This document shows positions 5,140 through 44,328 of a DNA stretch of 64,000 bases, in pieces (the first letter of the stretch is position 1; the number at the start of each line of letters is the position of its first letter). The DNA lies in assembly GCF_013167455.1 (NCBI RefSeq), contig NZ_CP038328.1. One strand, given 5' to 3'. The notes beneath the pieces were generated by a model. The model was not told where the DNA came from. It made no database searches and was given only the letters and a program-made list of their open reading frames with translations. Source of the DNA: Escherichia coli O157:H7. GTDB taxonomy: Bacteria; Pseudomonadota; Gammaproteobacteria; Enterobacterales; Enterobacteriaceae. A program made the translations under genes and the position numbers.

Positions 5140-6825
5140 TTGAAGAAGGTTTGGCTTAACCGTTATCCCGCGGACGTTCCGACGGAGATCAACCCTGACC
5201 GTTATCAATCTCTGGTAGATATGTTTGAGCAGTCGGTCGCGCGCTACGCCGATCAGCCTGCGTTTGTGAATATGGGGGAGGTGATGACCTTCCGCAAGCT
5301 GGAAGAACGCAGTCGCGCGTTTGCCGCTTATTTGCAACAAGGGTTGGGGCTGAAGAAAGGCGATCGCGTTGCGTTGATGATGCCTAATTTATTGCAATAT
5401 CCGGTGGCGCTGTTTGGCATTTTGCGTGCCGGGATGATCGTCGTAAACGTTAACCCGTTGTATACCCCGCGTGAGCTTGAGCATCAGCTTAACGATAGCG
5501 GCGCATCGGCGATTGTCATTGTGTCCAACTTTGCTCACACGCTGGAAAAAGTGGTCGATAAAACCGCAGTTCAGCACGTTATCCTGACCCGTATGGGCGA
5601 TCAGCTTTCCACAGCGAAAGGCACACTGGTTAACTTCGTTGTTAAATACATCAAACGTCTGGTGCCGAAATATCATCTGCCAGATGCCATTTCATTTCGT
5701 AGCGCCCTGCACAACGGCTACCGTATGCAGTATGTCAAACCTGAACTGGTGCCAGAAGATTTAGCCTTCCTGCAATACACTGGCGGCACCACAGGTGTGG
5801 CGAAAGGCGCGATGCTGACTCACCGCAATATGCTGGCGAACCTGGAACAAGTTAACGCTACGTATGGGCCTCTGCTGCATCCGGGCAAAGAGCTGGTGGT
5901 GACGGCGCTGCCGCTGTATCACATTTTTGCACTGACCATTAACTGCCTGCTGTTTATCGAACTGGGTGGGCAGAACCTGCTTATCACTAACCCGCGGGAT
6001 ATTCCGGGGCTGGTCAAAGAGCTGGCGAAATATCCGTTTACCGCTATCACCGGCGTAAACACCTTGTTCAACGCGTTGCTGAACAATAAAGAGTTTCAAC
6101 AACTGGATTTCTCCAGTCTGCACCTTTCTGCAGGCGGTGGGATGCCTGTTCAGCAAGTGGTGGCAGAACGCTGGGTGAAACTGACCGGACAGTATCTGCT
6201 GGAAGGTTATGGCCTGACCGAATGTGCGCCGCTGGTCAGCGTGAACCCCTATGATATTGATTATCATAGCGGTAGCATTGGTTTGCCGGTGCCGTCGACG
6301 GAAGCCAAACTGGTGGATGACGACGATAATGAAGTATCGCCAGGTCAGCCAGGTGAACTTTGCGTCAGAGGTCCACAGGTGATGCTGGGCTATTGGCAGC
6401 GTCCGGATGCTACCGATGAAATCATCAAAAACGGCTGGTTACACACTGGCGACATCGCGGTAATGGATGAAGAAGGATTCCTGCGCATTGTCGATCGTAA
6501 AAAAGACATGATTTTGGTTTCCGGTTTTAACGTCTATCCCAACGAGATTGAAGATGTCGTCATGCAGCATCCTGGCGTACAGGAAGTCGCGGCTGTTGGT
6601 GTACCTTCCGGCTCCAGTGGTGAAGCGGTGAAAATCTTCGTAGTGAAAAAAGATCCATCGCTTACCGAAGAGTCACTGGTGACCTTTTGCCGCCGTCAGC
6701 TCACGGGCTACAAAGTACCGAAGCTGGTGGAGTTTCGTGATGAGTTACCGAAATCTAACGTCGGAAAAATTTTGCGACGAGAATTACGTGACGAAGCGCG
6801 CGGCAAAGTGGACAATAAAGCCTGA
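5140..6825 (+). CDS. fadD: Long-chain-fatty-acid--CoA ligase FadD
   Basis: 561 codons from a TTG start ([14 protein letters not shown]...); AMP-binding motifs ([17 protein letters not shown]); ORF track extends to upstream ATG at 5074. Confidence 0.9.
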
Positions 6826-6843
6826 GCGTTAAGTCAGTCGTCA

Positions 6844-6870
6844 GACGCCGGTTAATCCGGCGTTTTTTTT
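6844..6870 (+). terminator. Intrinsic terminator after fadD
   Basis: acgccgg-ttaat-ccggcgt hairpin followed by T8 run; lies where the sRNA SroD is mapped in K-12 as I recall (not annotated here). Confidence 0.6.
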
Positions 6871-6894
6871 GACGCCCACTAAAGAGAAAACAAT

Positions 6895-8022
6895 TTGAAT
6901 TACCAAATGATTACCACGGACGATGCGCTGGCTTCTTTGTGTGAAGCCGTCCGTGCCTTTCCGGCGATAGCCCTGGATACTGAATTTGTTCGTACGCGCA
7001 CTTATTACCCGCAGCTGGGGTTGATTCAACTTTTCGATGGCGAGCATCTGGCGCTAATTGATCCTCTCGGGATCACCGACTGGTCACCGCTGAAAGCGAT
7101 CCTGCGCGATCCGTCCATCACAAAATTTCTCCATGCAGGCAGTGAAGATCTGGAAGTGTTCCTCAATGTCTTTGGCGAATTACCACAACCCCTGATTGAC
7201 ACGCAAATCCTTGCTGCCTTCTGCGGACGCCCGATGTCATGGGGTTTCGCTTCCATGGTGGAAGAGTATTCCGGCGTTACGCTGGACAAGAGTGAATCGC
7301 GCACCGACTGGCTGGCCAGACCGCTGACCGAACGTCAGTGTGAATATGCAGCGGCGGATGTCTGGTATCTGTTACCGATCACCGCCAAGCTTATGGTAGA
7401 AACGGAGGCCTCCGGCTGGCTACCAGCGGCGCTGGATGAATGTCGCCTGATGCAAATGCGTCGTCAGGAAGTCGTTGCGCCGGAAGATGCCTGGCGTGAT
7501 ATCACCAATGCCTGGCAATTACGCACACGCCAACTGGCCTGTCTGCAACTGTTAGCCGACTGGCGACTGCGCAAGGCGCGAGAGCGCGATCTGGCGGTGA
7601 ACTTTGTCGTGCGTGAAGAGCATTTGTGGTCGGTAGCGCGTTATATGCCGGGAAGTTTAGGCGAACTGGACAGCCTGGGTTTATCCGGTAGCGAAATCCG
7701 CTTTCACGGTAAAACGCTGCTGGCGCTGGTGGAAAAAGCGCAGACATTGCCGGAAGAGGCCTTACCGCAGCCGATGCTTAACCTGATGGACATGCCGGGT
7801 TATCGTAAAGCGTTTAAAGCGATTAAGTCGCTGATTACTGACGTGAGCGAAACGCACAAGATCAGCGCCGAATTGCTGGCATCGCGTCGGCAAATCAACC
7901 AACTGCTGAACTGGCACTGGAAACTGAAACCGCAGAACAATTTGCCGGAGCTGATTTCCGGCTGGCGTGGTGAGCTGATGGCGGAAGCATTACACAATTT
8001 ATTGCAGGAATATCCGCAGTAA
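6895..8022 (+). CDS. rnd: Ribonuclease D
   Basis: 375-aa ORF from a TTG start (MNYQMITTDDALASL...); DEDDy exonuclease and HRDC features; recognised. Confidence 0.85.
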   Translation: MNYQMITTDDALASLCEAVRAFPAIALDTEFVRTRTYYPQLGLIQLFDGEHLALIDPLGITDWSPLKAILRDPSITKFLHAGSEDLEVFLNVFGELPQPLIDTQILAAFCGRPMSWGFASMVEEYSGVTLDKSESRTDWLARPLTERQCEYAAADVWYLLPITAKLMVETEASGWLPAALDECRLMQMRRQEVVAPEDAWRDITNAWQLRTRQLACLQLLADWRLRKARERDLAVNFVVREEHLWSVARYMPGSLGELDSLGLSGSEIRFHGKTLLALVEKAQTLPEEALPQPMLNLMDMPGYRKAFKAIKSLITDVSETHKISAELLASRRQINQLLNWHWKLKPQNNLPELISGWRGELMAEALHNLLQEYPQ

Positions 8023-8028
8023 AATTTT

Positions 8029-8071
8029 CCGAAGCCGGACTGGGCGCGCTCAGCGCCACATCCGGCTTCGG
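8029..8071. repeat. REP-like extragenic palindrome between convergent rnd and yeaX
   Basis: ccgaagccgga...tccggcttcgg GC-rich palindrome read directly. Confidence 0.45.
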
Positions 8072-8075
8072 CAAA

Positions 8076-9041
8076 CTACAAATCCAACACCAGGCGTTTA
8101 CCCTTCGCACGCGAACAACAGATCAACATACTTTGCTGGCTGGCACGCTCTTCATCGCTAAAATACTGATCCCGATGGTCAGCTTCACCTTCCAGTATTG
8201 CCGTTTCGCAGGTTCCGCATACCCCTTCACGACATAAACATTCCACTTTCGCGGCTTTATTATTTTCAATAACCTGCAAAATAGTCATCTCTTCCGGCAC
8301 CACAAACTCTTTTCCGGAACGGGCAAGCACCAGGGTAAATGCATCGCCGGTTTTGTCTTCGATAGCAAATTGCTCAAAGTGCAGCGTATCGGCAGCGATG
8401 TCCAGACGCGCAGCTTCACTTCTTACCGCTTCAATTAGCGCCTCGGGGCCACAGGTATAAACGTGTGTGCCAGGTTCGATATCCGCCAATAATCGCGCTA
8501 ATTCCAGTCGTGTTCCGGTCGATGATTGATGCAAATGGACTTTCTCAGCCTGCGGATGCTGGACTAGCTCATCACGAAATGCGCAACTTTCTGGATTTCG
8601 CGAGCAGTAATGTAGCTGCCAGTCGACGTCGCTGTGTTGCAACTCTGCCATGTGCGACAGGAAAGGGGTGATACCAATACCGCCCGCGATAAACAGATGC
8701 TTTCTGGCTGAGGGAATTAGCGCAAACAGGTTATTAGGCGTTGAGATCGTTAACCGATCGCCCACTTTTACCTGCTGATGCAAAAAGCGGGAACCGCCGC
8801 GCGAGTTTTCTTCCAGTCGAACGGCAATCTGATAACTAGAGGTGTTATGCGGTGAACTCAGTAGTGAATACGCATTACTGTACTGGTTATCACCATCGCT
8901 CATCTGCACTATGATGTGACTTCCTCCGGTGAACGCAGGCAGCGGTTTGCCATCGGTTGCCACCGGCGTGAAGCGTTTCACCTGTTCGGTAAGCGGTTCC
9001 ACCTGACTCACCTGTACTTCAAACATTTGATAGTCTGACAT
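8076..9041 (-). CDS. yeaX: Carnitine monooxygenase reductase subunit (CntB/YeaX)
   Basis: 321-aa ORF; FNR-like reductase with C-terminal 2Fe-2S ferredoxin cysteines (CREGVCGTCE). Confidence 0.8.
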   Translation of the reverse strand: MSDYQMFEVQVSQVEPLTEQVKRFTPVATDGKPLPAFTGGSHIIVQMSDGDNQYSNAYSLLSSPHNTSSYQIAVRLEENSRGGSRFLHQQVKVGDRLTISTPNNLFALIPSARKHLFIAGGIGITPFLSHMAELQHSDVDWQLHYCSRNPESCAFRDELVQHPQAEKVHLHQSSTGTRLELARLLADIEPGTHVYTCGPEALIEAVRSEAARLDIAADTLHFEQFAIEDKTGDAFTLVLARSGKEFVVPEEMTILQVIENNKAAKVECLCREGVCGTCETAILEGEADHRDQYFSDEERASQQSMLICCSRAKGKRLVLDL

Positions 9042-15708: not shown

Positions 15709-15854
15709 TTATCACTGATCGTTGATGGCGCAATTTCTGCGCCATCGCAAAAAAACCTCCGTGATGCTCGTCACAAATCTTGCCCTCCCGATGTTGTGCT
15801 ATGCTTTTTATCAGCGACTAACCCGCTAATGCAAAACAGATAAGTGAGGAAACA

Positions 15855-28202: not shown

Positions 28203-28637
28203 GGTATGCCGTCCTTTCGTTTTTTAGCACAGGTTAAGAGCCGTTCATATGAATAGTAGAGGCTCCCGGAAGAGGTAAACTGAACGACGTCTCTTGCTAA
28301 AACACAGCAACTCTCATGCCATTTTATCGACGATGAGAACAACGTGCCCGGTGATACACCTTCAAAATTAAGCGTAGATGGCAAATGGAAAACTTGCCTA
28401 CACGGCTTTCTTAATTTCAATGGCATATCAACAACTCATCCATAAATTTTGCATAATTAATGTAAAGACCAGGCTCGCCAGTAACGCTAAATTCATTTGG
28501 CTGTAAGCGCGGTGTCATCCGCGTCAGGAAAATTAAACAGTTACTTTAAAAAATGAAAACGTAAAAAGGTTGGGTTTCGATGTATTGACGGGTAAACTTT
28601 GTCGCCCGCTAAACATTTGTTTAAGGAATGATTAATT

Positions 28638-29384
28638 GTGACCAAACTCAAACTTCTGGCACTTGGAGTGCTTATCGCAACGTCTGCAGGCGTAGCGCAC
28701 GCTGAAGGTAAATTTTCCCTGGGCGCAGGCGTAGGTGTCGTTGAACACCCATATAAAGATTACGATACCGATGTTTACCCAGTACCGGTAATCAACTATG
28801 AAGGCGATAACTTCTGGTTCCGTGGCTTAGGTGGTGGTTACTACCTGTGGAATGACGCAACGGATAAACTTTCAATTACCGCTTACTGGTCGCCGCTTTA
28901 CTTCAAAGCTAAAGACAGTGGCGATCACCAAATGCGTCACCTGGATGACCGTAAGAGCACCATGATGGCTGGTCTGTCTTATGCTCACTTTACCCAGTAC
29001 GGTTACCTGCGTACCACCCTGGCTGGCGATACCCTGGATAACAGCAACGGCATCGTCTGGGATATGGCCTGGTTGTATCGTTACACCAACGGTGGCCTGA
29101 CCGTGACTCCGGGTATTGGTGTGCAGTGGAACAGCGAAAACCAGAACGAATACTATTATGGCGTATCGCGCAAAGAGTCCGCTCGCAGCGGTCTGCGTGG
29201 CTATAACTCGAACGACAGCTGGAGCCCTTACCTGGAGCTGAGCGCCAGCTACAACTTCCTCGGCGACTGGAGTGTTTACGGTACCGCGCGCTACACCCGT
29301 CTGTCTGATGAAGTTACTGACAGCCCGATTGTGGATAAATCCTGGACTGGCCTGATTTCTACCGGGATCACCTACAAATTCTGA
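28638..29384 (+). CDS. mipA: MltA-interacting protein MipA (YeaF)
   Basis: 248-aa ORF, GTG start; signal peptide; beta-rich OMP-like sequence. Confidence 0.8.
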   Translation: MTKLKLLALGVLIATSAGVAHAEGKFSLGAGVGVVEHPYKDYDTDVYPVPVINYEGDNFWFRGLGGGYYLWNDATDKLSITAYWSPLYFKAKDSGDHQMRHLDDRKSTMMAGLSYAHFTQYGYLRTTLAGDTLDNSNGIVWDMAWLYRYTNGGLTVTPGIGVQWNSENQNEYYYGVSRKESARSGLRGYNSNDSWSPYLELSASYNFLGDWSVYGTARYTRLSDEVTDSPIVDKSWTGLISTGITYKF

Positions 29385-32354: not shown

Positions 32355-32683
32355 CTATTTGTTAGTGAATAAAAGGTTGCCTGTAAAATTACAAAAACCT
32401 TACGCAGCGTCAAGCGGAATCGTGTCAATCATTGCGACAAATCAATCCTGTGCCTAAGCATTACGCGACTGACTCGCCTCACTCTTCCTTTGGGCTTGAG
32501 ACCACATGGGGTCGGCGCCCCGAATTTTAAAGGGCAATTACGATAAAAATGTGATTTTCATCACGATTTAGGTGCAGCCATTTCGTCGAGATCAAGTTTA
32601 GGACAAAATTTTGCCAGTTGGTGTTAATGTTTTGTTAGAATCAGTCACGTAATGTGAGCACGATTAAAGTGAGATGTGAGCAA

Positions 32684-33670: not shown

Positions 33671-33702
33671 TGTAAAACGCAGATTATTATCTGTGTTTTA
33701 CA
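33671..33702. promoter_or_regulatory. 12-bp inverted repeat upstream of ydjL, candidate operator
   Basis: tgtaaaacgcag-attattat-ctgtgttttaca (one mismatch), about 80 bp upstream of the ydjL start. Confidence 0.3.
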
Positions 33703-33780
33703 TGTTTAATGTTGACCTCAAAAATCATGTGGGTAAGTATGATGACCATCTAAGCAAAACAAAACACAGAGGATGACGCA

Positions 33781-39126: not shown

Positions 39127-40107
39127 ATGAAAAAGATACCTTTAGGCACAACGGATATTACGCTTTCGCGAATGGGGTTGGGGACATGGGCCATTGGCGG
39201 CGGTCCTGCATGGAATGGCGATCTCGATCGGCAAATATGTATTGATACGATTCTTGAAGCCCATCGTTGCGGCATTAACCTGATTGATACTGCACCAGGA
39301 TATAACTTTGGCAATAGTGAAGTTATCGTCGGTCAGGCGTTAAAAAAACTGCCCCGTGAACAGGTTGTAGTAGAAACCAAATGCGGCATTGTCTGGGAAC
39401 GAAAAGGAAGTTTATTCAACAAAGTTGGCGATCGGCAGTTGTATAAAAACCTTTCCCCGGAATCTATCCGCGAAGAGGTAGAAGCCAGCTTGCAACGTCT
39501 GGGTTTTGATTACATCGATATCTACATGACGCACTGGCAGTCGGTGCCGCCATTTTATACGCCGATCGCTGAAACTGTCGCAGTGCTTAATGAGTTAAAG
39601 GCTGAAGGGAAAATTCGCGCTATAGGCGCTGCTAACGTCGATGCTGACCATATCCGCGAGTATCTGCAATATGGTGAACTGGATATTATTCAGGCGAAAT
39701 ACAGTATCCTCGACCGGGCAATGGAAAACGAACTGCTGCCGCTATGTCGTGATAATGGCATTGTGGTTCAGGTTTATTCCCCGCTAGAGCAGGGATTGTT
39801 GACCGGCACCATCACTCGTGATTACGTTCCGGGCGGCGCTCGGGCAAATAAAGTCTGGTTCCAGCGTGAAAACATGCTGAAAGTGATTGATATGCTTGAA
39901 CAGTGGCAGCCACTTTGTGCTCGTTATCAGTGCACAATTCCCACTCTGGCACTGGCGTGGATATTAAAACAGAGTGATTTAATCTCCATTCTTAGTGGGG
40001 CTACTGCACCGGAACAGGTACGCGAAAATGTCGCGGCACTGAATATCAACTTATCGGATGCAGACGCAACATTGATGAGGGAAATGGCAGAGGTCTTGGG
40101 GCGTTAA
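39127..40107 (+). CDS. ydjG: Aldo-keto reductase YdjG
   Basis: 326-aa ORF. Confidence 0.8.
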   Translation: MKKIPLGTTDITLSRMGLGTWAIGGGPAWNGDLDRQICIDTILEAHRCGINLIDTAPGYNFGNSEVIVGQALKKLPREQVVVETKCGIVWERKGSLFNKVGDRQLYKNLSPESIREEVEASLQRLGFDYIDIYMTHWQSVPPFYTPIAETVAVLNELKAEGKIRAIGAANVDADHIREYLQYGELDIIQAKYSILDRAMENELLPLCRDNGIVVQVYSPLEQGLLTGTITRDYVPGGARANKVWFQRENMLKVIDMLEQWQPLCARYQCTIPTLALAWILKQSDLISILSGATAPEQVRENVAALNINLSDADATLMREMAEVLGR

Positions 40108-40125
40108 ATACTCAACACGATTCAC

Positions 40126-40172
40126 CTCTGTTTCTGTGAAAACTGTGATGAAAATCTGTGATTCAAACAGGT
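40126..40172. promoter_or_regulatory. Repeated CTGTGA motifs with flanking inverted repeat upstream of ydjF, candidate DeoR-type operator
   Basis: Three CTGTGA copies at 40134, 40143 and 40156, bracketed by ctgttt / aaacag. Confidence 0.3.
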
Positions 40173-40243
40173 TATTTTGAAAGTAAACATCGGTTATGCG
40201 ATAATCGCGCTAATGTGATGTAAAAAGATACAGGGGTGTAATC

Positions 40244-41002
40244 GTGGCGGCAAAAGACAGGATTCAGGCAATTAAGCAAATGGTTGCCAACGATAAAAAG
40301 GTGACAGTCTCAAATTTGAGTGGGATTTTTCAGGTAACCGAAGAAACCATTCGCCGCGATCTTGAGAAGCTGGAAGATGAAGGCTTTTTGACCAGAACCT
40401 ATGGTGGTGCTGTTTTAAATACAGCGATGTTGACGGAGAATATCCATTTTTATAAGCGCGCTTCATCGTTTTATGAAGAGAAGCAGCTTATTGCACGCAA
40501 GGCACTACCCTTTATCGACAATAAAACCACCATGGCAGCCGATTCCAGTAGTACCGTAATGGAATTGCTCAAATTGTTACAGGACCGTAGTGACCTGACG
40601 TTGCTAACCAACTCGGCGGAAGCGATTCATGTTCTGGCTCAGTCAGAAATTAAAGTCGTTTCAACGGGTGGGGAACTAAACAAAAATACACTTTCACTGC
40701 AAGGAAGAATTACTAAAGAGATCATCAGCCGCTATCATGTCGATATCATGGTAATGAGTTGTAAAGGTCTTGATATTAACAGCGGCGCGCTGGACTCTAA
40801 TGAAGCGGAAGCTGAAATCAAAAAGACAATGATCCGTCAGGCGACAGAAGTTGCGTTATTGGTTGATCACTCTAAGTTTGATCGCAAAGCTTTTGTCCAG
40901 TTAGCCGACTTTAGTCATATTAATTACATAATAACTGATAAATCACCGGGTGCAGAGTGGATAGCATTTTGCAAAGACAATAATATCCAGCTGGTGTGGT
41001 AA
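40244..41002 (+). CDS. ydjF: DeoR-family transcriptional regulator YdjF
   Basis: 252-aa ORF, GTG start; N-terminal HTH and DeoR C-terminal domain. Confidence 0.8.
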   Translation: MAAKDRIQAIKQMVANDKKVTVSNLSGIFQVTEETIRRDLEKLEDEGFLTRTYGGAVLNTAMLTENIHFYKRASSFYEEKQLIARKALPFIDNKTTMAADSSSTVMELLKLLQDRSDLTLLTNSAEAIHVLAQSEIKVVSTGGELNKNTLSLQGRITKEIISRYHVDIMVMSCKGLDINSGALDSNEAEAEIKKTMIRQATEVALLVDHSKFDRKAFVQLADFSHINYIITDKSPGAEWIAFCKDNNIQLVW

Positions 41003-41119
41003 TTTAAGCACGCGTTGTCAATATTATTTGTTCCTGCGCCTGGAAATAAAATGATGATAAAGATGCGGCAAGTGAATTTGCCGCAATTGCTACCTTTTTT
41101 AGCAAATCCGAGGCACCCA

Positions 41120-43222: not shown

Positions 43223-44239
43223 TTAATCATCCGGCGTCAGTTCGCCGCGCAGGTTTTGGCTCATGGCCTTGCGAATGGTTTCAGTATCCAGTTCCTGGCT
43301 AAGCAGGTAATGCAGTTTGGTTAGCGTGGCTTCTACAGTCATATCTGCACCGCCAATAACGCCAGCATGGGCGAGGGCGTTACCGGTGGCATAACCACCC
43401 ATATTCACTTTACCGGACATACATTGTGTCAGGTTGACCACCACAATACCGCGATCGCTGGCTTCTTGTAATTCCTGCAGGAAGGCTTTGTTTTGTGGCG
43501 CATTACCCACGCCATAGGAGCGCAGAATCAATGCTTTCACCGGTTGGCGCAGAAAATTGCGCACGACGTCAGCAGAAATCCCTGGATAAATCGTCACTAC
43601 GCCAATTGGTTGTGGGGTGATTGGATGTACGATCAATTCCCCTTCACCGTGCGGGGCGGGTGGCGTATTCAAACGACGAATATGGATACCTGCTTCCAGT
43701 AACGGAGGAAGGTTTGGAGAGGCAAACGCATCAAAACCATCGGCATGGGCTTTGGTAGTGCGGTTGCCGCGATACAGTCGGTTATTAAAAAAGAGTGTTA
43801 CTTCGTTGATCGGATAATTCGCCGCAACGTACAACGCATTCAGCAGATTAATTTGTCCGTCAGAGCGTAACTCAGCCAGCGGGATTTGTGACCCTGTCAC
43901 AATGACCGGTTTACCGAGATTTTCGAGCATGAACGACAGCGCAGAGGCGGTATACGCCATCGTGTCGGTGCCGTGCAGAATGACAAAACCATCATAGTCG
44001 TCATAGTGCGCTTTAATATCTTCAGCAATATGCTGCCAGTCTTCCGGCGTCATATCTGAAGAATCCATCAGCGGCGTATATTCATGAATGGTGAAATCTG
44101 GCATCTCCGGGCGATGGAATTCCGGCATCAGCGCCAGTTGGCGTTGTAGATGACCTGACACCGGTATATAACCCTGCTCGGAACGCTGCATCCCGATGGT
44201 CCCGCCCGTGTAGGCAACGTAAATTGATTTCTTTTGCAT
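43223..44239 (-). CDS. ansA: Cytoplasmic L-asparaginase I
   Basis: 338-aa ORF MQKKSIYVAYTGGTIGMQRS...; recognised. Confidence 0.9.
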   Translation of the reverse strand: MQKKSIYVAYTGGTIGMQRSEQGYIPVSGHLQRQLALMPEFHRPEMPDFTIHEYTPLMDSSDMTPEDWQHIAEDIKAHYDDYDGFVILHGTDTMAYTASALSFMLENLGKPVIVTGSQIPLAELRSDGQINLLNALYVAANYPINEVTLFFNNRLYRGNRTTKAHADGFDAFASPNLPPLLEAGIHIRRLNTPPAPHGEGELIVHPITPQPIGVVTIYPGISADVVRNFLRQPVKALILRSYGVGNAPQNKAFLQELQEASDRGIVVVNLTQCMSGKVNMGGYATGNALAHAGVIGGADMTVEATLTKLHYLLSQELDTETIRKAMSQNLRGELTPDD

Positions 44240-44328
44240 GATATTGATATGAATGATATCGAAAGAGCAAAAGTATATACGTGAGGGGCAGCGAGCGCAC
44301 CTGGATACTCTGTGGATATGAGAAAAGT

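Follow-up and report, generated by a model that had tools for sequence, protein, structure and literature searches.

The three CTGTGA copies that lie between ydjG and ydjF in Escherichia coli O157:H7 are real, but they do not make up one operator, and the array as originally described is not the unit that is conserved. Instead, they appear to mark an overlap of signals in the ydjF control region, namely, conserved blocks that are candidate sites for the DeoR/GlpR-family regulator YdjF, a box for the cyclic AMP (cAMP) receptor protein CRP, and an RNA pairing, all by a sigma-70 promoter. We give this layered arrangement about an even chance of being correct. The analysis covered a 64,000-nucleotide stretch of the chromosome (the window), which is a 100% match to NZ_AP018488 and runs opposite to the K-12 map, so that ydjL, ydjK, ydjJ, ydjI, ydjH, ydjG, ydjF, and ydjE all lie on the + strand.

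The ydjG–ydjF spacer is 136 bp long and holds all of the repeat elements. It separates the ydjG stop codon (40105-40107, + strand) from the GTG start of ydjF at 40244 (gene 40244..41002, + strand); both genes are 100% matches to E. coli O157:H7, and YdjF carries HTH_DeoR (2.9e-17) and DeoRC (2.4e-49) domains. A first-pass annotation had placed an array of CTGTGA repeats, bracketed by an inverted repeat, between the end of ydjG and the GTG start of ydjF, and this placement upstream of a DeoR-type regulator gene was borne out by the coordinates, the identity match, and the domains: ctgttt occupies 40128-40133, CTGTGA begins at 40134, 40143, and 40156, and aaacag occupies 40165-40170. Of 5426 complete E. 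coli genomes, 4329 carry the region, in one instance on a plasmid, and ~20% lack it. It is nearly invariant within the species, with at least 99% identity in 3705 of the 4329. Regulation of the ydjLKJIHG operon was stated to be uncharacterised in a 2019 study, which also found that the ydjL promoter turns on in the mouse gut (PMC6561318).

How unusual the repeats are depends on how they are counted. Three CTGTGA copies within 28 nt were seen in none of 300 shuffles, and three TGTGA copies were seen in 3 of 300. Since CTGTGA had been chosen post hoc, we also counted triples of any hexamer, of which the window holds 2 versus 0.3 per shuffle. The triple is thus moderately unusual relative to chance, which is suggestive without being decisive. 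The only other hexamer triple in the window is TGATAT, three times within 21 nt at 44239-44259 (TGATATTGATATGAATGATAT), at the 5' end of a minus-strand open reading frame (43223-44239) that corresponds to ansA by its position in the K-12 annotation. A fourth TGTGAT copy, found in Escherichia only, lies at 40214..40219 (+ strand), just 3' of the predicted ydjF transcription start; this copy (TGTGATGTAAA) shares 91% identity with repeat 2 and the adjoining flank.

The bracketing inverted repeat did not survive comparison with shuffled sequence. The spacer contains 2 inverted pairs of 6 nt against 1.6 expected, a number equaled by 44% of shuffles, and conservation does not tie the right arm, aaacag (40165..40170, + strand), to ctgttt: most species have AGACAT there, with 67% sharing the E. 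coli base. The pairing of the two arms is coincidental. The left arm belongs to a conserved block that is either an anti-Shine-Dalgarno segment or an inverted site. The claim of roughly helical spacing likewise fails for the triple, whose start-to-start distances are 9 and 13 bp; it holds only for repeats 1 and 3, whose conserved TCTGTGA sequences are 22 bp, or two helical turns, apart.

Comparison across species separated the three copies. Scanning one genome per species, we identified 22 enterobacterial loci with ydjLKJIHG-ydjF synteny in Escherichia, Citrobacter, Klebsiella, Raoultella, Yokenella, Budvicia, Intestinirhabdus, Symbiopectobacterium, and Serratia, and we aligned the spacer from 20 Enterobacterales species, expressing conservation as majority identity. 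Against 79% for the 3' coding end of ydjG (40060-40107) and 52% for the segment after its stop codon (40108-40123), two blocks on the + strand stood out. Block 1 (40124..40141; ACCTCTGTTTCTGTGTAA; ACCTCTGTTTCTGTG(T/A)AA), which contains the left arm ctgttt, is 95% conserved, and block 2 (40153..40190; AAATCTGTGATTCAGACATGTTnTTTTGAAAATAAACAT; AAATCTGTGATTCA(A/G)ACA(G/T)GTTnTTTTGAAAGTAAACAT), which begins at -59, spans the -35 hexamer, and ends in the promoter spacer, is 92% conserved. The gap between them (40142-40152) has a constant length of 11 nt and 65% identity.

Repeat 1 (40134..40139, + strand) sits inside block 1 and shows 92% identity; every other species has CTGTGT here, with a T at position 40139 in 95% of the species. 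Repeat 3 (40156..40161, + strand), at 97%, forms the core of a conserved motif, ATCTGTGATT (40154-40163). Repeat 2 (40143..40148, + strand) falls in the gap and is specific to E. coli: the E. coli bases are found there in 27% of species, and the copy reads CTATGA in E. whittamii and CGATGA in Escherichia sp. E1V33. Not every repeat is therefore conserved across the orthologous loci. Within E. coli, strain LZYWN_4 (NZ_CP046416.1) has a 12-bp deletion (AAAACTGTGATG), equivalent to 40139-40150, between direct repeats; it takes out exactly repeat 2 and with it the CRP box described below. One of the loci, that of Serratia sp. H1w, lies in a degenerate ydj cluster (5900-8800 in that locus) in which a ydjH fragment, ydjG, ydjF, and ydjE are left and ydjL is missing, such that it is uninformative for the regulon.

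Downstream of the repeats lies a good sigma-70 promoter for ydjF (40177..40205, + strand), with TTGAAA at -35 (40177-82), a 17-nt spacer, a TG extension (40197-98), and GATAAT at -10 (40200-05). TTGAAA-17-TGcGATAAT matches the consensus at 10 of 12 positions, its -35 and -10 are 96% and 90% conserved, respectively, and the start is predicted at about 40212-40213. Genomic SELEX (systematic evolution of ligands by exponential enrichment) with RNA polymerase identified a "constitutive" promoter with exactly these hexamers between ydjG and ydjF (Shimada et al. 2014, PMC3946193). On the strength of the prediction and this in vitro selection, the promoter would start ydjF transcription at about 40212, which puts the repeats at about -79 to -51. 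No terminator-like site was predicted between ydjG and ydjF in 39900-40400. Further downstream, in the ydjF–ydjE spacer, a GC-rich hairpin (GCGGCAAGTGAATTTGCCGC, 41064-41085) scored as a terminator-like element of the minus strand; it could terminate ydjF transcripts or be part of the control of ydjE.

The E. coli-specific copy coincides with a published CRP site. The box ACAGATTTTCATCACA was assigned to a cAMP-CRP SELEX-chip site in the spacer separating ydjF from ydjG (Shimada et al. 2011, PMC3105977, Table S3), and ydjF is among the newly identified CRP targets in Table 2A of that study, in which the cut-off was 4.0, the fragments were ~300 bp, and no signal was obtained without cAMP. The sequence TGTGATGAAAATCTGT at 40144..40159 (+ strand) is the reverse complement of the published box; it is composed of repeat 2, whose TGTGA is the strong half, and the first four bases of repeat 3. 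Scored with a matrix that we built from 149 other boxes of the same table, it reaches 8.4 bits, which places it at the 26th percentile of those 149 boxes and ahead of manX, a known site that scores 6.8 bits. The orthologous positions score 5.1 bits in E. whittamii and 2.6 bits in Escherichia sp. E1V33. The three best matrix matches in the window, at 32550-32565, 15760-15775, and 28637-28652, are the gapA/msrB, yeaQ, and mipA/yeaG SELEX sites; since these boxes are in the training set, the matches serve as a coordinate consistency check only.

The center of the ydjF box (40151.5) is -60.5 or -61.5 from the predicted start, depending on whether the latter is taken as 40212 or 40213. Class I CRP activation is centered near -61.5 (or -72.5, -82.5, or -92.5). 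A CRP box near -61 would add catabolite control to ydjF, if the box assignment is right and acts in vivo. Judged by the alignment, the box appears to have been gained recently by E. coli on top of an older architecture: in this species alone, the variable gap would have become a third CTGTGA copy, which together with the first bases of repeat 3 would form the CRP box.

The older architecture is what repeat 3 points to. The motif around it, ATCTGTGWTT, occurs exactly twice in the 64-kb window, at 40154 and at 33689 (33689..33698, + strand), and each copy starts 23 nt before a -35 hexamer, TTGAAA at 40177 for ydjF and TTGACC at 33712 (33712-17) for the predicted ydjL promoter; the candidate local-regulator motif is AWATCTGTGWTT. 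Its core is just as confined elsewhere: across 17 orthologous loci (282 kb), all 30 of 30 occurrences of TCTGTGWTT fell in the two promoter zones, about -91 from the start codons, with 0 elsewhere versus 4.3 expected. The ydjL upstream region is itself conserved (TATTTGTGATCTGAGTTGTGAAATGCAGATCAATATCTGTGTTTTAAAGATTT..TGTTGACC), and its in-register similarity to the ydjF upstream region was reached in only 5 of 3000 shuffles. Half-sites are direct copies upstream of ydjF and a mixture of direct and inverted copies upstream of ydjL, where they are spaced 12 and 21 bp apart.

When a cluster encodes one regulator and a motif is found only at its two promoters, this is the usual comparative hallmark of an operator for that regulator. 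ATCTGTGWTT is therefore most likely a YdjF site, probably a cluster-specific one for this DeoR-type protein. The conserved blocks carry TCTGTG cores (repeats 1 and 3), 22 bp apart, upstream of and across the -35 hexamer, and YdjF bound at both promoters would give autoregulation together with control of the ydjLKJIHG operon. Block 2 is the candidate operator zone, and the operator may be at the -35 and spacer rather than at the CTGTGA cores. The suggestion that the array is a DeoR-type operator therefore stands in part, in that the blocks around repeats 1 and 3 are 92-97% conserved in 20 species and the repeat-3 motif recurs at the ydjL promoter; it does not extend to repeat 2, which is an E. 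coli-specific CRP half-site, and the repeats lie upstream of the core promoter.

Two inverted repeats were also noted at ydjL. A near-perfect 14-nt pair, TGTAAAACGCAGAT / ATCTGTGTTTTACA (33671-33702), lies just upstream of the predicted -35, and its right arm includes the ATCTGTGWTT copy; other species keep only a CAGAT-N4-ATCTG core. A perfect 10-nt pair, TCTGTGTTTT / AAAACACAGA (33690-33699 and 33761-33770), flanks the predicted ydjL promoter, with its second arm abutting the ydjL Shine-Dalgarno sequence. This parallels the ydjF arrangement and is weaker in other species.

That arrangement is the third layer. The ydjF ribosome-binding region (consensus AAACAGAGGTG) has its reverse complement within block 1, as CACCTCTGTTT, and the main consensus structure from RNAalifold is a 12-bp helix between the core anti-Shine-Dalgarno arm (40124-40135, + strand) and AGATACAGGGGT at 40226-37 (alignment columns 71-82 and 177-188). 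In E. coli the first arm extends outward to 40116, and the Shine-Dalgarno arm spans 40226..40246 (+ strand), as AATCGTG (40240-46), which includes the GTG start, additionally pairs with CACGATT (40116-22). The E. coli RNA from 40108-40262 has a minimum-energy fold of -44.8 kcal/mol (z = -4.35; none of 200 shuffles was as good), in which 40116-31 pairs with 40230-46 through 16 plus 3 pairs over the Shine-Dalgarno sequence and the GTG start. In the minimum-energy folds of all 20 species, the Shine-Dalgarno region pairs with block 1.

A hint that the pairing itself may be maintained comes from outside the core. Lineage-specific outer extensions of the helix gave a Fisher P of 5.6e-5 over 8 clades, and they exceeded both shuffled and cross-species-swapped controls in Escherichia, Symbiopectobacterium, and Serratia, as well as marginally in Budvicia. 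E. coli and Serratia, which have the weakest cores, show the strongest extension, and in Serratia sp. H1w the upstream block and the ribosome-binding site remain complementary through different bases (TTTACC / GGTAAA). A search of 39800-40500 returned no Rfam match at E ≤ 1.

The predicted ydjF promoter (40177-40205, start about 40212) falls between the two arms (40116-35 and 40226-46). Because the start lies between them, only read-through RNA would hold both arms. The predicted unpaired probability of the E. coli ribosome-binding region was 0.07 in the read-through RNA versus 0.39 in the short transcript, and in 14 of 14 species this region was predicted to be less accessible in the long RNA than in the short one. 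Folding and comparative data together suggest that, on ydjG read-through mRNA, the helix would hide the ydjF ribosome-binding site and, in E. coli, the GTG start as well, whereas transcripts from the internal ydjF promoter would be translatable. We tentatively propose, at somewhat less than even confidence, that the anti-Shine-Dalgarno segment in block 1 makes ydjF translation depend on the promoter of origin, with ydjLKJIHG read-through being silenced. If true, repressor synthesis would be insulated from induction of the repressor's own operon, a chromosomal counterpart of IS10-type fold-back inhibition.

We weighed this layered reading against simpler ones. That all three CTGTGA copies together with ctgttt and aaacag form one array bound by YdjF has in its favor that YdjF is a DeoR-family protein, that tandem repeats of 10-11 bp periodicity have been predicted for DeoR-type regulators (PMC3870299), that repeats 1 and 3 are conserved, and that the ydjL upstream region has three conserved YTGTGW copies. 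Nevertheless, we consider it unlikely: repeat 2 is absent outside E. coli and was lost from a natural E. coli strain through the 12-bp deletion, the 9/13-bp spacing is irregular, the inverted repeat is at chance level with a right arm that is not conserved, and the left arm is better explained by the 12-nt block complementary to the ribosome-binding site. At the opposite pole, the TGTGA copies could be cAMP-CRP half-sites of one or more overlapping weak sites, with no YdjF binding. TGTGA is the CRP core, a SELEX-chip peak with a box lies in the spacer, the score of the box is within the range of accepted sites, and its center is near -61; we nevertheless consider this reading improbable, as just one of the three registers in the repeat zone scores above 3 bits, the other two falling below, and the conserved blocks have no CRP-like site in any other species. 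Nor does it reach the ydjL promoter, where ATCTGTGWTT has no CRP partner half-site, no upstream position near the motif exceeds 5.2 bits, and ydjL was not found in Table S3 of PMC3105977.

The blocks might also be constrained by something other than YdjF, such as read-through RNA structure, a bending or UP-like element, or an unlinked factor, with the repeats as a by-product. The pairing of block 1 with the Shine-Dalgarno region in 20 of 20 species fits this idea, as do the Citrobacter and Klebsiella folds, which extend the helix inward into repeat 1, and published chromatin immunoprecipitation (ChIP)-chip data include a LexA signal at ydjF (PMC3542263). Repeat 3 and block 2, however, are unpaired in the consensus fold, block 2 contains G and C, unlike an UP element, no Rfam family matches, and the motif is confined to two promoters of a single-regulator cluster, all of which leave this explanation with little weight in our view. 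That the repeat is a functionless coincidence was already disfavored and is very improbable: about 0.3 triples of any hexamer are expected per 64-kb window and the inverted repeat is at chance level, but the blocks holding repeats 1 and 3 are 92-97% conserved versus 79% for the adjacent coding sequence, a published CRP SELEX peak covers the spacer, and the motif recurs at the ydjL promoter.

Several observations nonetheless weigh against the layered reading that we prefer. For the CRP box, 27 other positions in the window outscore it (about one per 2.3 kb), which ranks it 28 of about 64,000, and the score alone is weak evidence for this reason. Compared with TGTGA-N6-TCACA, its left half is perfect and its right half, TCTGT against TCACA, matches at 2 of 5 positions; no comparable CRP-like site occurs at the E. 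coli position in any orthologue scanned, and the SELEX-chip peak was obtained in vitro with a resolution of ~300 bp (PMC3105977). For the operator, the repeats lie upstream of the core promoter, which is not the place for a simple steric operator, and a motif upstream of the -35 is unusual for a simple repressor. We found no reports of YdjF binding, ChIP, or SELEX in the literature. The ydjL -35 and -10 are our own reading of a conserved TTGACC-17-AAGTAT, as the promoter scan did not call a ydjL promoter, and the similarity between the ydjF and ydjL upstream regions falls to a P value of about 0.03-0.05 when any offset is allowed. Because all of the loci are syntenic, they provide no independent regulon evidence. 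For the RNA pairing, the near-invariance of the core pairs leaves little true covariation and little proof, and the groups of Citrobacter freundii and Klebsiella oxytoca lack the outer extensions. A real alternative is that the promoter is flanked by two inverted DNA copies of a protein half-site (CCTCTGT), which would produce this complementarity equally well.

Three other regulators were considered and set aside. For Cra (FruR), the reverse strand of block 2 (TCTGAATCACAGAT) has a TGAAWC half in most species, with ~10 of 14 positions matching overall; E. coli matches at ~9 of 14, and the ydjL copy has no match. A LexA site at 40156-40170 would read CTGT-N7-ACAG, which has the wrong spacing, as LexA needs N8. 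For TyrR, E. coli does not have the TGTAAA that other species show in block 1, and that sequence has no good partner. A separate, degenerate LexA-like site has been listed for the "unconventional" LexA ChIP-chip target ydjF,ydjK at K-12 1852887-1852906 (PMC3542263). The ydjF 5' leader sequence TGATGTAAAAAGATACAGGG (40216-40235) is the reverse complement of that site, and it overlaps the Shine-Dalgarno arm of the predicted helix.

The ydjG–ydjF spacer is, then, an ordinary if layered promoter region, of which the CRP box and the ydjF promoter were already published. No general principle is changed, but regulation of the orphan ydj sugar pathway is made directly testable by concrete cis-elements: a candidate YdjF operator motif shared by two promoters; an E. 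coli-specific CRP box, which would represent a recent gain of catabolite control over a regulator gene; and a conserved RNA pairing by which translation of the repressor could become independent of read-through from the operon.

Each of the three layers has a counterpart in known systems. The E. coli regulators GlpR and AgaR are the comparison members of the DeoR/GlpR family. Relative to the operators of this family, including the motifs predicted for DeoR-type RhaR (PMC3870299), the ydj elements are similar in that they adjoin a gene with HTH_DeoR and DeoRC domains, have short TCTGTG cores 22 bp apart, and precede both transcription units of the cluster while occurring nowhere else within it. 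They differ in that the cores are mostly upstream of the -35, in mixed arrangement, and in that they are putative operators. No characterised DeoR-family operator resembling the ydj sequence could be verified.

Like class I CRP sites of the lac P1 type, the ydjF box is a 16-bp element with a perfect TGTGA half and a cAMP-dependent SELEX-chip peak (PMC3105977). It also resembles lac P1, which is centered at -61.5, in lying at about -60.5/-61.5 upstream of a promoter in a sugar-catabolic cluster. In contrast to such sites, the ydjF box has a poor right half, is found in E. coli only, and has a position that is relative to a predicted start.

For the RNA pairing, the closest parallel is the fold-back inhibition of transposase translation on read-through transcripts of IS10 and IS50, reportedly described by Davis, Simons, and Kleckner in 1985; the fbi element of hok mRNA is a further fold-back comparison. 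These systems share with ydjF a segment upstream of the gene's own promoter that is complementary to the ribosome-binding site, and in IS10/IS50, as would be the case here, a transcript has both arms, and so sequesters the site, only if it began further upstream. In contrast to a gene of a mobile element, ydjF is a chromosomal regulator at the end of a catabolic operon, and its predicted fold-back would enclose a loop of ~90 nt that contains a promoter and regulator sites.

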